Positions 32,399 to 35,281 of a DNA stretch of 64,000 nt are shown one piece after another. Both the position numbers and the translations under genes were made by a program. This stretch comes from an uncultured bacterium (GTDB taxonomy: Bacteria > Babelota > Babeliae > Babelales > Vermiphilaceae). Location of the stretch: positions 1,088,001 through 1,152,000 of the forward strand of contig OY970212.1 in the NCBI GenBank assembly GCA_963713925.1, written 5' to 3'. Positions within the stretch are counted from its first letter, which is position 1; the number at the start of each line of letters is the position of its first letter. Below the pieces are notes generated by a model. It worked only from the letters and a program-made list of their open reading frames with translations. It was not told the DNA's origin and ran no database searches.

Positions 32399-32980
32399 AT
32401 GAAAAAAATAATATTTCCTTTTTTGTGCATTTTCTCATCATTATTACCCATAAGCCTCTCTGGATCTACCGAACAACAAGGCTCCTGTTTTTCAACTGCT
32501 TTTTCTGCCGGATATGTTTTTAAACATAATGATTGCATATTTAAAGAAGTCTACGGGCATGGAATAGTAAATGTCATCACTGCAGACGGTTGCTACTATC
32601 CTTGCGAGCAATGGGGCATAGGCGCAAAGATAAGCTATTGGCGCGCTCATGGACGAACAACGTTTTTAAAGAAATGCTCTCTGCTGCAAGAAGTGCCACT
32701 TACTTTTTACCTACGCAGGATGAAAGATTTTAGATGCGGTTTGCAGCTCTATGCTTCATTGGGCGGTGGGATCATTTGGATTAAAGAGAAAAGCTATCTT
32801 GGTGATTTGCATCTTCACAAAGGTATTGGCGAAGCTGAAATAGGTATGAATTATCCGATATGGCGCTGCGTGAATATTACAAGCGCATTTCGCTATCTTT
32901 TTCCACGGCAATCACACTGCGGTACAAAAATGGATGTCGGCGGATTTGATCTGAGAGCCGGTATCGGATTTCAATTCTAG
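32399..32980 (+). CDS. Outer-membrane beta-barrel protein
   Basis: Signal peptide, amphipathic strands and terminal LRAGIGFQF. Confidence 0.7.
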   Translation: MKKIIFPFLCIFSSLLPISLSGSTEQQGSCFSTAFSAGYVFKHNDCIFKEVYGHGIVNVITADGCYYPCEQWGIGAKISYWRAHGRTTFLKKCSLLQEVPLTFYLRRMKDFRCGLQLYASLGGGIIWIKEKSYLGDLHLHKGIGEAEIGMNYPIWRCVNITSAFRYLFPRQSHCGTKMDVGGFDLRAGIGFQF

Positions 32981-33001
32981 GCTATAAAACTTGTAAATTT
33001 T

Positions 33002-33029
33002 GAAGGCCCGAGATTTCTCTCGAGCCTTC
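33002..33029 (+). terminator. Probable terminator hairpin
   Basis: GAAGGCCCGAGA...TCTCGAGCCTTC followed by a T-rich tract. Confidence 0.55.
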
Positions 33030-33095
33030 GCTCTTTTATAGAAGTTTATTTTTTTTGGAGTTTATCAGAAAATCTCGGAAGTTCCTTATTGCTAC

Positions 33096-33209
33096 GTCAT
33101 CCTGAATTTATTTCAGGATCTACTTAACCTGGATCCAGCCTTCGCTTATCCAGGCTTTCAGGCTTGGTAAGCTACGGCGGACAAGTTGCTGAAACAAGTT
33201 CAGCGCGAC
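33096..33209. repeat. REP-like doublet (GTCATCCTGAA.../...TTCAGCGCGAC) with nested family B module
   Basis: Inverted arms at 33096-33121 and 33187-33209 enclose CCAGCCTTCGC-TTATCCAGGC...GCTACGGCGGACA. Confidence 0.65.
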
Positions 33210-33260
33210 AACCAACCCTTGTATGTTAAAAATTGATTCAAATTTTGATAGATAATGTAT

Positions 33261-33444
33261 TAATTTGTGATCGGTATATTGTTTCACAAATTAGTTGCTC
33301 GGGAAAAGCTGATAGAGCTCGCGCCAACCCTAATCGTAATCGATTGCTAAAAAGTTTGAGACTATCAGCTTATACGAAATTACCTCGAACAATTACTAGA
33401 GGCGTATTAATACGACCTCGAATGTTTACAAGGATGAGGTATTT
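33261..33444 (+). ncRNA. Putative IS110 bridge RNA (5' stem-loop, target-binding loop, donor-binding loop)
   Basis: Three stems: 33261-70/33284-93, 33306-15/33362-71 and 33381-86/33436-41. Loop segments match the flanks and the donor junction. Confidence 0.85.
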
Positions 33445-34386
33445 ATGATTACCCTACCAGAAGTATTTATCGGCGTCGATATTTCAAAGAACAATTTGGA
33501 CATTTTTATTCATCCGTTGAAGCAATGGGTTAAAATACCCAATACAGAAAGCGGAATAAAAAAGTTTGTGAAGCAATTATCCAATTACAGTATTAAGCAA
33601 ATTGCATGTGAGGCAACCGGTGGTTACGAAAAATTGCTTACTCGGGTATTACAGGAACATTCCTATAGTTGTTGGATAGTTGATCCACGGAGGATAAAGG
33701 GTTTTATAATCGCAACTGGTTGCAAAAGCAAAACAGACAAAATAGATGCACAAAAAATTGCTGAATTTGCATCGAAGAATTCTCAAGATTATGAGCCAGT
33801 CAGCAGAACTCATAACCAAGAAACATTGCTATCTTTGGTTAATCGAAAGCAGGATTTGACCAAATTTTTGGCAACTGAAAAAACTCGACTTAAACACCCC
33901 TCGCATGCACTCGGTGTTTCAAGTATCGAAAGAATGATCCTCTTTTTAAATAAAGAAATCAAGGCTTTGGATGAACAAATTGAAGAATTGATTGATCAAG
34001 ATGCGGTACTGCAGAAACGGACAGAGCTTTTGGAATCAATCCCGGGAATCGGTAAATCTTCGGCCGCGATATTGATTTCGTTTGTGCCTGAACTTGGATC
34101 TGTAAGCAATAATGAAATAGCAGCCCTTGTCGGAGTTTGTCCTTACGATCGAGAAAGTGGCAACTATACAGGCAAACGGTTCATTCAAGGCGGTAGGATT
34201 ATTCCTCGAAATGCATTATATATGTGTGCTATAACGACTATTAAGTATTATGCTCCTTTAAAATCCTTTTATGATCGACTAATAGCAAACAAAAAAAGCT
34301 TTAAAGTAGCTATTGTTGCAGTAATGCGAAAGCTGATCATCATTGCAAATGTTATCTTGAAAAAGGGCGAAGTATGTAGTGCTTAA
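33445..34386 (+). CDS. IS110 family DEDD recombinase/transposase
   Basis: GVDISK, CEATGGY and KTDKIDA (DEDD residues); SIPGIG; CPYDRESG (catalytic Ser candidate). Confidence 0.96.
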   Translation: MITLPEVFIGVDISKNNLDIFIHPLKQWVKIPNTESGIKKFVKQLSNYSIKQIACEATGGYEKLLTRVLQEHSYSCWIVDPRRIKGFIIATGCKSKTDKIDAQKIAEFASKNSQDYEPVSRTHNQETLLSLVNRKQDLTKFLATEKTRLKHPSHALGVSSIERMILFLNKEIKALDEQIEELIDQDAVLQKRTELLESIPGIGKSSAAILISFVPELGSVSNNEIAALVGVCPYDRESGNYTGKRFIQGGRIIPRNALYMCAITTIKYYAPLKSFYDRLIANKKSFKVAIVAVMRKLIIIANVILKKGEVCSA

Positions 34387-34393
34387 AAATTAA

Positions 34394-34399
34394 TTGACT
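34394..34399 (+). promoter_or_regulatory. Outward-facing -35 box completed on circularisation
   Basis: TTGACT lies 17 bp from TATGTT (33222-27) once the two ends are joined at a single CT. Confidence 0.7.
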
Positions 34400-34447
34400 T
34401 TTAACACAATTACTTTTTAGTTAGAAAACTTAATTTTCGTACAAGCA

Positions 34448-35281
34448 CTAAAACCGAATAACCGCCGTCATACGATTGAGTTCATCTTGGTATTCTTGGA
34501 GCAGTGTTTTATATTTTTTCTCACGAAGCGCCATCTCAATTTCATCATGTCGCTCTTCAAGCGGCACGGGGCGACGCGGCAAAAGACTCACCGATTTAAA
34601 GAGTTCAAAGAAATCGCCGTGCTTAACAATCTTTATTTGCCCAGGTTTAAGCTTGCAAATAAATTGCTTATCTTCGGCTACTTCCGATTCCTTAATCCAG
34701 AATGGATCAGACCACGAGATAGTCACCGTCTGATCGGTTATTTTCTTCTGCAACTCTTTTACTGTCTTTGCTACATCAAAGCCGGTTGCAGCTCTTTTGA
34801 CCTCATAGGAAGGCTCAAGATATTGTGGGTTTTCATTCCAGTAGATTTCCATTTCACGTTTTGAGACCGTCAAACGGCTCATAATGCGAAACCCAGTGAC
34901 CTGGTTAACCCCAGTCATAACCTTAAACTGATCTTTACCTTCTTCTAAAGTATAGCCACCGGAAGTAAATATTGATTCCAACTCTTTATCACTTAAGTTA
35001 TTTTCTCGTTTAATTTCTTTCAATTGGCGCTCAACAGCATCTTCATCGACCATTTTAAACTTTTCGGCATCCATAAACATCTGACATTCCCGGGTGCGAT
35101 TCTCCAGGGAATGCATCCGGCCATCAATGCCCGGGCGATTGACATCTGATTTGGTTATAACGTCAGTTCTTTCAGGCCCAACGACTACGGCACTAATTGA
35201 ATCGAGCTCAACTGCCCCCTGCGGGAGGGCACATATTCTCAAGGCAGTTGCTAGAATAAGAAAGAGACAGCGTATGTTCAT
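34448..35281 (-). CDS. SurA-like periplasmic chaperone
   Basis: Signal peptide; LDSISAVV...VITKSDV SurA-like N-terminus; degenerate parvulin region. Confidence 0.65.
   Translation of the reverse strand: MNIRCLFLILATALRICALPQGAVELDSISAVVVGPERTDVITKSDVNRPGIDGRMHSLENRTRECQMFMDAEKFKMVDEDAVERQLKEIKRENNLSDKELESIFTSGGYTLEEGKDQFKVMTGVNQVTGFRIMSRLTVSKREMEIYWNENPQYLEPSYEVKRAATGFDVAKTVKELQKKITDQTVTISWSDPFWIKESEVAEDKQFICKLKPGQIKIVKHGDFFELFKSVSLLPRRPVPLEERHDEIEMALREKKYKTLLQEYQDELNRMTAVIRF

Follow-up and report, generated by a model that had tools for sequence, protein, structure and literature searches.

The IS110 element and its recombinase

Analysis of the window, that is, the whole stretch of 64,000 nucleotides from an uncultured bacterium of the Vermiphilaceae (contig positions 1,088,001–1,152,000), revealed an IS110 element of 1,197 bp, both CT cores included. 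The host genome, a single contig of 1.32 Mb that is 95.75% complete, holds three copies of it, at contig (C1) positions 1121218–1122414 (+ strand; the window copy), 1277391–1276195 (− strand), and 679641–678445 (− strand). In window coordinates, with all the features below on the + strand, the element begins with the CT core of the left junction (33218–33219), identical in the three copies, followed by the right donor arm (33220–33224), which is the left end of the element and matches its guide. It closes with the left donor arm plus CT core (34406–34414), the right end, assigned by its match to the guide and by the copies. Between them lie a predicted bridge RNA of approximately 208 nt (33234–33442) and, downstream of it, the recombinase gene (33445–34386), beyond which the right end of the element takes up 28 bp.

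The ends were identical in all three copies, with one 2-bp core at both junctions and constant boundaries, and empty paralogous sites were also found, as anticipated by an earlier account of this DNA made without database searches (hereafter, the sequence-only reading), which had expected fixed boundaries across other copies. Between copies, 0–2 of the 1197 bases differed, corresponding to two synonymous third-position changes, with copies 2 and 3 identical throughout the element. As the frame, catalytic residues, guides, and promoter boxes are conserved in the three copies, the element is, on its sequence, intact and recently active, and it is probably active at present. Public contigs agreed with the assembly at two sites only, the right junction of the window locus and one empty allele, the study they come from being possibly the source of the assembly itself; the right junction of copy 3 was present in a run from a second study. 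In contigs from three DNA runs of patchy cover, neither a circle junction nor an empty allele of the window locus was detected. The left-end motif was the same in 21/21 related elements with both ends parsed, in a parse that itself searched for the motif. In one relative (L013), the left end of the element seems to be tandemly duplicated across about 20 bases.

The recombinase, of 313 aa, matched PF01548 and PF02371, both above cut-off in a profile search, and NF033542 (197.7 bits, cut-off 140). The only solved structures found as relatives were those of IS621 (E 1e-37, residues 8–309) and ISCro4 (E 2e-38). Residues D12, E56, D98, D101, and S238 align with D11, E60, D102, D105, and S241 of IS621 and are invariant in 38/38 proteins of an alignment composed of the query of 37 homologs taken from the 119 listed as best, so the DEDD and Ser motifs are intact, as had been noticed before. 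The description of the protein as compact was overstated, as 107 of its best 120 homologs have 311–316 aa and the published size range for these recombinases is 300–460 aa (PMC11208160), of which it occupies the small end. Among 8000 candidates scored, at least 327 proteins reached E 1e-60 or better, the nearest of them being 72% identical, and a homolog at 65% identity carries the name Candidatus Dependentiae, to which the host genome probably belongs. In plasmid records, none closer than about 38% identity was found among the best 12 of 2598.

Bridge RNA and junction promoter

In single-sequence folding (z −2.4, 4/200 shuffles as good), the leader formed a 5′ hairpin followed by two stem-loops, both with large internal loops, the same architecture that the sequence-only reading had drawn. 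The 5′ stem-loop spans 33257–33297 in the minimum-energy fold; the target-binding loop (33306–33371), placed by fold and alignment, is closed by an outer stem in which 33306–33315 pairs with 33362–33371, and contains an inner hairpin (33332–33345); the donor-binding loop occupies 33381–33441. In 25 aligned related leaders, 96.7% of 720 stem cells were paired and 10 of the 29 stem pairs showed changes on both sides, with 0/500 shuffles as high and 27–42% of cells paired in slid controls; these leaders are kin and the shuffle result is not a probability. A search of Rfam over 32900–34600 returned one sub-threshold chance match and nothing else. The start of the RNA, previously set at 33255, is probably near 33234, a 5′ end deduced from the junction promoter described below.

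Four guide segments, in the expected order and in the expected loops, could be read against the DNA, and every one of them, together with the target-loop stem, was read back where the sequence-only reading had placed it. Positions 33324–33331 equal the left flank 33212–33219, and 33347–33354 are the reverse complement of the right flank 34413–34420; 33389–33397 equal the right end of the element (34406–34414), and 33427–33432 are the reverse complement of 33218–33223. All four matches contain the CT core, and their chance frequencies in first-order Markov resamples of the 212-nt leader were 0/3000, 0.7%, 0.07%, and 4%, respectively. The proposed target CCAACC-CT-TTTTAG and donor ACAATTA-CT-TGTA gained support from the three identical boundaries, the empty paralogous sites, and the covariation of guides with flanks.

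From flank match and covariation, the left target guide probably comprises 9 nt, core included (33323–33331, 7 nt + core), with a G:T wobble at position −7 in the window copy and a Watson–Crick pair in copy 2. Positions 33348–33354 form the right target guide (5 nt + core). In the donor loop, the left guide (33389–33397, 7 nt + core) matches the right end, whereas the right guide (33422–33432) is probably discontiguous (AU, looped bases, ACAAG), following the pattern of IS621, for which PMC11208158 describes a discontiguous right donor guide, a G72-U73 linker, a disordered linker between loops, the handshake rule, and the structure. Handshake bases were located at 33433–33434 (GA, donor loop) and 33355–33356 (UU, target loop), the first base of each pairing the non-cognate DNA at −1, target and donor, respectively, in 22/22 related RNAs with readable flank and in 23/25; the second positions did so in 5/21 and 0/25.

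The 3′ strand of the donor-loop stem also holds the ribosome binding site of the recombinase, GAGG (33436–33439), 5 nt ahead of the start codon, and this site falls inside the stem in 25/25 aligned relatives (33436–33445 in the window). Such an arrangement could limit translation from the bridge-RNA transcript.

A putative −10 box TATGTT, preceded by TG (33222–33227), lies at the left end of the element and a −35 box TTGACT (34394–34399) at the right one, so that a promoter TTGACT-17-TATGTT, predicted from sequence, would be made at the circle junction. The 17-nt spacing was kept in 20/21 elements, and no + strand promoter match was found in the linear form.

The target repeat is a MITE

All three copies of the element were found at one position of a dispersed repeat, of which 26 copies have a scorable target module; that the target is a MITE had been missed by the sequence-only reading. 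The repeat is about 145 bp long, up to about 270 bp with nested hairpin modules, and has 16-bp terminal inverted repeats and no coding capacity. Its 3-bp flanks are identical in 10 of 14 paired empty copies, nine of those being TAA or TTA, and one long DNA hairpin is formed by an empty copy on folding (z −6.1). In another genome of the same family (G232), the ends of the repeat flank a 260-aa IS5 transposase (locus L083, positions 1851–2723; NF033580, 184 bits, cut-off 110), and we therefore assign it as an IS5-type MITE with a REP-like core. That locus is in itself a complete small IS5 element sharing the terminal repeats of the MITE.

Within the window, the left part of the MITE forms a REP-like long hairpin (33058–33217) that encloses a second, small hairpin repeat (about 33130–33187). 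Its left terminal inverted repeat (33058–33073), recognized by alignment with other copies and with the IS5 ends in G232, is degenerate in this copy. The left target (−7 to −1, 33211–33217) and the right target (+1 to +5, 34415–34419), matching their respective guides, border the element, and the right terminal inverted repeat closes the MITE (34433–34448). The last base of this repeat lies in the stop codon (34448–34450) of a convergent 277-aa ORF without Pfam match.

Other MITE copies of the host genome can be seen, for example, at contig positions 187354–187503 and 730877–731016, and the core or ends were matched in 53 of 260 other genomes of the phylum. No autonomous IS5 partner was detected in the host genome, which is 95.75% complete, with PF13359, PF01609, or the L083 protein as queries; a search with PF01797 gave a single 30-residue fragment. 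A 9-bp tandem duplication at the target site of one MITE copy (873350–873365) is possibly the scar of an earlier insertion. In addition, a small hairpin repeat of another type is inserted close to the IS110 target position, no more than a few bases away, in two MITE copies (around 910120 and 994000).

Occupancy of the target sites

Occupancy was scored after removing the elements in silico and scanning the 1.32 Mb for the 14-bp target (−7 to +5), with wobble allowed at −7 and +5. The perfect target occurs three times in the genome, and the three sites are filled. An 11-bp match, the length read by IS621, was found at 13 sites, the other ten of them empty (seven in the MITE and three elsewhere), and a 12-bp match (−5 to +5) at six sites, with mismatches at −6 or −7 in the three empty ones. 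Bases +3 to +5 fully separate filled from empty sites in this chromosome. Within the MITE, filled sites were 3/3 versus 0/7 (Fisher p 0.008), in a test made on three insertions and with T-run lengths taken from one assembly. True mismatches, one or more, were present in each of the 23 empty scored MITE copies, often owing to a T run of different length. As for the left arm, its 7-nt length is drawn from this genome alone, positions −6 and −7 not covarying in the relatives.

The host repeats of the three copies differ at 18/200, 14/147, and 13/147 aligned bases (about 9%), one of them being devoid of an inner module, while the elements within them are 0–2 bases apart, and such divergence of repeats and modules points to three independent insertions. 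The opposite reading would be a single insertion followed by duplication of MITE and element together, through IS5 mobilization or gene conversion, in which case occupancy would be silent on guide length. Copies 2 and 3, identical within the element and with good MITE ends kept, could be taken in that sense. However, co-duplication was rejected on the divergence of the host repeats and the differences in their modules, set against elements with 0–2 differences in 1197 bases; the bases beside the target differ as well, and no IS5 transposase was detected in the host genome with three queries. We regard it as highly improbable.

Covariation in related elements

Matches at E 1e-40 or better were found in 19 of 261 genomes of the phylum, host included, and metagenome loci were added by a DNA pattern search, which gave 23 metagenome loci (five of them chance matches in coding DNA) and no viral ones; locus scans with a peptide pattern gave one locus in genome contigs and none in metagenome contigs. 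The covariation set consisted of 37 parsed loci with 27 distinct bridge RNAs, window element included, of which 21–24 were scorable per position. Loci left out were L012, equal to L001; the fragments L006, L007, and L010; the chance matches L037, L049, L050, L055, and L056; and L004, L005, L009, L019–L026, L030, L031, L035, L061, and L062, not parsed and mostly more distant. One genome (G155) carries two members of the clade, L016 and L061, which share the left donor guide and differ in their target guides.

The target guides of these elements vary freely and track their flanks. Watson–Crick matches at +1 to +5 were 0.96, 0.94, 1.00, 0.75, and 0.86, against 0.36, 0.37, 0.72, 0.28, and 0.45 in 2000 guide–target shuffles. 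On the left side, matches at −1 to −5 were 1.00, 0.85, 0.72, 0.54, and 0.50 (shuffled 0.75, 0.37, 0.36, 0.30, and 0.27), with −4 and −5 moderately above shuffled, and fell to 0.37 at −6 (shuffled 0.24, p 0.07) and 0.21 at −7 (shuffled 0.24). Significance is overstated by these shuffles, since the relatives are kin and many of them have related REP-like repeats as targets. In 18/25 RNAs, the left guide has one base fewer than that of the window element, and in these the outer left positions match less. The donor guides, in turn, are nearly invariant, so their evidence consists of conservation and one co-changed base, T/C at donor −2.

Positions +6 (0.17 versus 0.18 shuffled) and +7 were at background, and only two of the four scorable RNAs with a non-U base at +6 pair there. 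The right guide is preceded by a G in all RNAs (27/27), and the base after this G is U in 22/27, which fits the G72-U73 linker of IS621; thus base 33347, although it matches +6 in the window, stands at the linker position. On these grounds, the right target guide has 7 nt, core included, and not the 8 nt of the sequence-only reading, and an 8-nt right guide was rejected as a feature of the clade. The same reading had suggested that its long right-guide matches might be new; the 8-nt one does not hold, 7-nt right target guides longer than that of IS621 are already known from natural orthologs (PMC11208160), and the 6-nt donor match agrees with the discontiguous right donor guide already described.

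The profile along the two arms might indicate that this Dependentiae clade weights target reading to the right (five strict positions on the right, two to five on the left), the reverse of IS621, a proposal that we put forward only tentatively. Copies of related IS110 elements were also found at sites matching mainly one target arm, the right one in L003, L032, and L034 and the left one in L018. They resemble the published insertions with one arm matched (10.64898/2026.08.31.748434) or could derive from later rearrangement.

Hairpin gating, linker contact, and loss of activity

The three insertions lie inside the repeat, the left target starts a few bases past a long DNA stem, and related elements are found mostly in hairpin repeats, their flanks being judged by eye. 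Guide pairing may thus be needed but insufficient, the MITE hairpin beside the site also acting as a gate, in the manner of the 5′ stem-loop of ISPpu10, the precedent for target-hairpin gating (10.64898/2026.03.19.712850). Against this, perfect 14-bp sites are confined to the repeat, so that sequence alone accounts for the occupancy; moreover, the left target itself is outside the long stem in the fold, and no repeat of this kind could be seen in the flanks of L032. We consider such a gate rather unlikely, and it is in any case a supplement to guide-directed targeting and not a substitute for it. A silent element, a relic of recent activity, would explain that the chromosome has no perfect empty target, but frame, catalytic residues, guides, and promoter boxes are intact in all three copies and the differences among them are synonymous only, which makes this improbable.

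A different question was raised by the end of the target-loop stem and the linker (33367–33379), a 13-nt complement of the consensus right end of the MITE (34435–34447), exact in two copies and with two mismatches in the window copy. If this stretch paired with the MITE right end, 18–30 bases past the core, as a third contact of the bridge RNA, or mimicked the IS5 end in DNA, the element would recognize not just a site but also which transposon hosts it. In 9/5000 Markov resamples of the leader a match of 13 nt with one empty repeat was reached, and the IS5-type end is also present in other genomes of the phylum. However, L001, L014, and L046 carry 12 of the 13 bases and aim at unrelated repeats, the longest linker–flank match in 19 other loci tested was 9 nt, and the stem already ties up five of the 13 nt. 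Furthermore, at least seven empty copies have the exact end, so the match does not separate filled from empty copies; the linker of IS621 is disordered (PMC11208158), and the activity of IS622 rose without it (10.1101/2025.05.14.653916). The comparison of linkers and flanks across relatives leaves a third guide unsupported, and a function of this kind is very doubtful. The match is probably inherited sequence plus chance.

Proposed mechanism and comparison with known systems

Taken together, the data indicate that this is very probably an autonomous IS621-type IS110 bridge-RNA element directed by its guides to a site in a MITE. The parts, the boundaries, the target choice, and the covariation come from the sequences themselves; circle formation, transcription, RNA binding, strand exchange, and reprogramming are carried over from work on IS621 and would apply here by analogy, reprogramming having indirect support in the natural change of targets across the 27 related RNAs. 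According to that mechanism, the element would leave as a circle (for excision, see PMC13626964), whose joined ends would set the −35 box 17 nt from the −10 box and drive transcription of the bridge RNA, about 208 nt long. This RNA would be bound by the 313-aa recombinase, with the donor loop reading the circle junction and the target loop the 14-bp site (7 + CT + 5), and recombination at CT would be driven forward by one handshake pair per loop. The target spans a C and T run that is not of constant length in the MITE, which puts the majority of copies out of register; these have probably escaped, with no perfect empty site left.

The mechanism was already published in 2024 and is unchanged by this element, which contributes modestly through its clean pattern of occupancy and through the covariation, weighted to the right arm, of its clade. 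In practical terms, the element adds a small ortholog that natively reads 14 bp, from a large clade, to the pool for screening bridge recombinases. It also offers a natural test of right-arm reading, studied mostly with engineered guides, and the 23 empty MITE alleles constitute a ready mismatch panel. In addition, the data suggest that a host repeat may slip RNA-guided targeting through changes in T-run length. No description of IS110 in Dependentiae was found in the literature searched, largely outside subscription journals, and the supplementary files of PMC11208160, as far as text-searchable, gave no match to this clade; the 72 orthologs listed with 10.1101/2025.05.14.653916 may include a relative.

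The closest parallel is IS621 of E. coli (PMC11208160, PMC11208158, PDB 8wt6), which shares with this element a left-end RNA with a 5′ stem-loop plus target and donor loops, the guide order, the CT core, the donor right arm TGTAT, a junction sigma70 promoter, the handshake bases, the DEDD and Ser residues, and a dispersed hairpin repeat as target. In contrast, its protein is distant (E 1e-37), its right target guide has 4 nt versus 7 here, its RNA 177 nt versus about 208 predicted here, and its target is the E. coli REP versus an IS5-type MITE; in the relatives of this element, moreover, the outer left-guide positions are weak and most left guides (18/25) are shortened. With IS622/ISCro4 of Citrobacter rodentium (10.1101/2025.05.14.653916, PDB 9t56), for which a model of 14 bases read has been presented and removal of the linker raised activity, it has in common the 14-bp reading of target and donor and the handshake logic, although the protein is again distant (E 2e-38) and the activity data belong to IS622. 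ISPpu10 of Pseudomonas putida (10.64898/2026.03.19.712850) is likewise an IS110 element with a CT core in a conserved intergenic hairpin repeat, but a required target stem-loop has been demonstrated for ISPpu10.

REPs, attC sites, and transposon ends are all known as targets of the family (PMC11187229). Membership of the IS1111 group, whose elements carry sub-terminal inverted repeats, with their RNA downstream, was rejected for this element, with its guide RNA upstream of the gene and its right end of 28 bp. Nevertheless, IS4321/IS5075, from that group and inserted in Tn21 inverted repeats (via PMC11187229), are also IS110-family elements aimed at a mobile element, the difference being that the target here is located about 15 bp inside the end repeat of the MITE and not in it.
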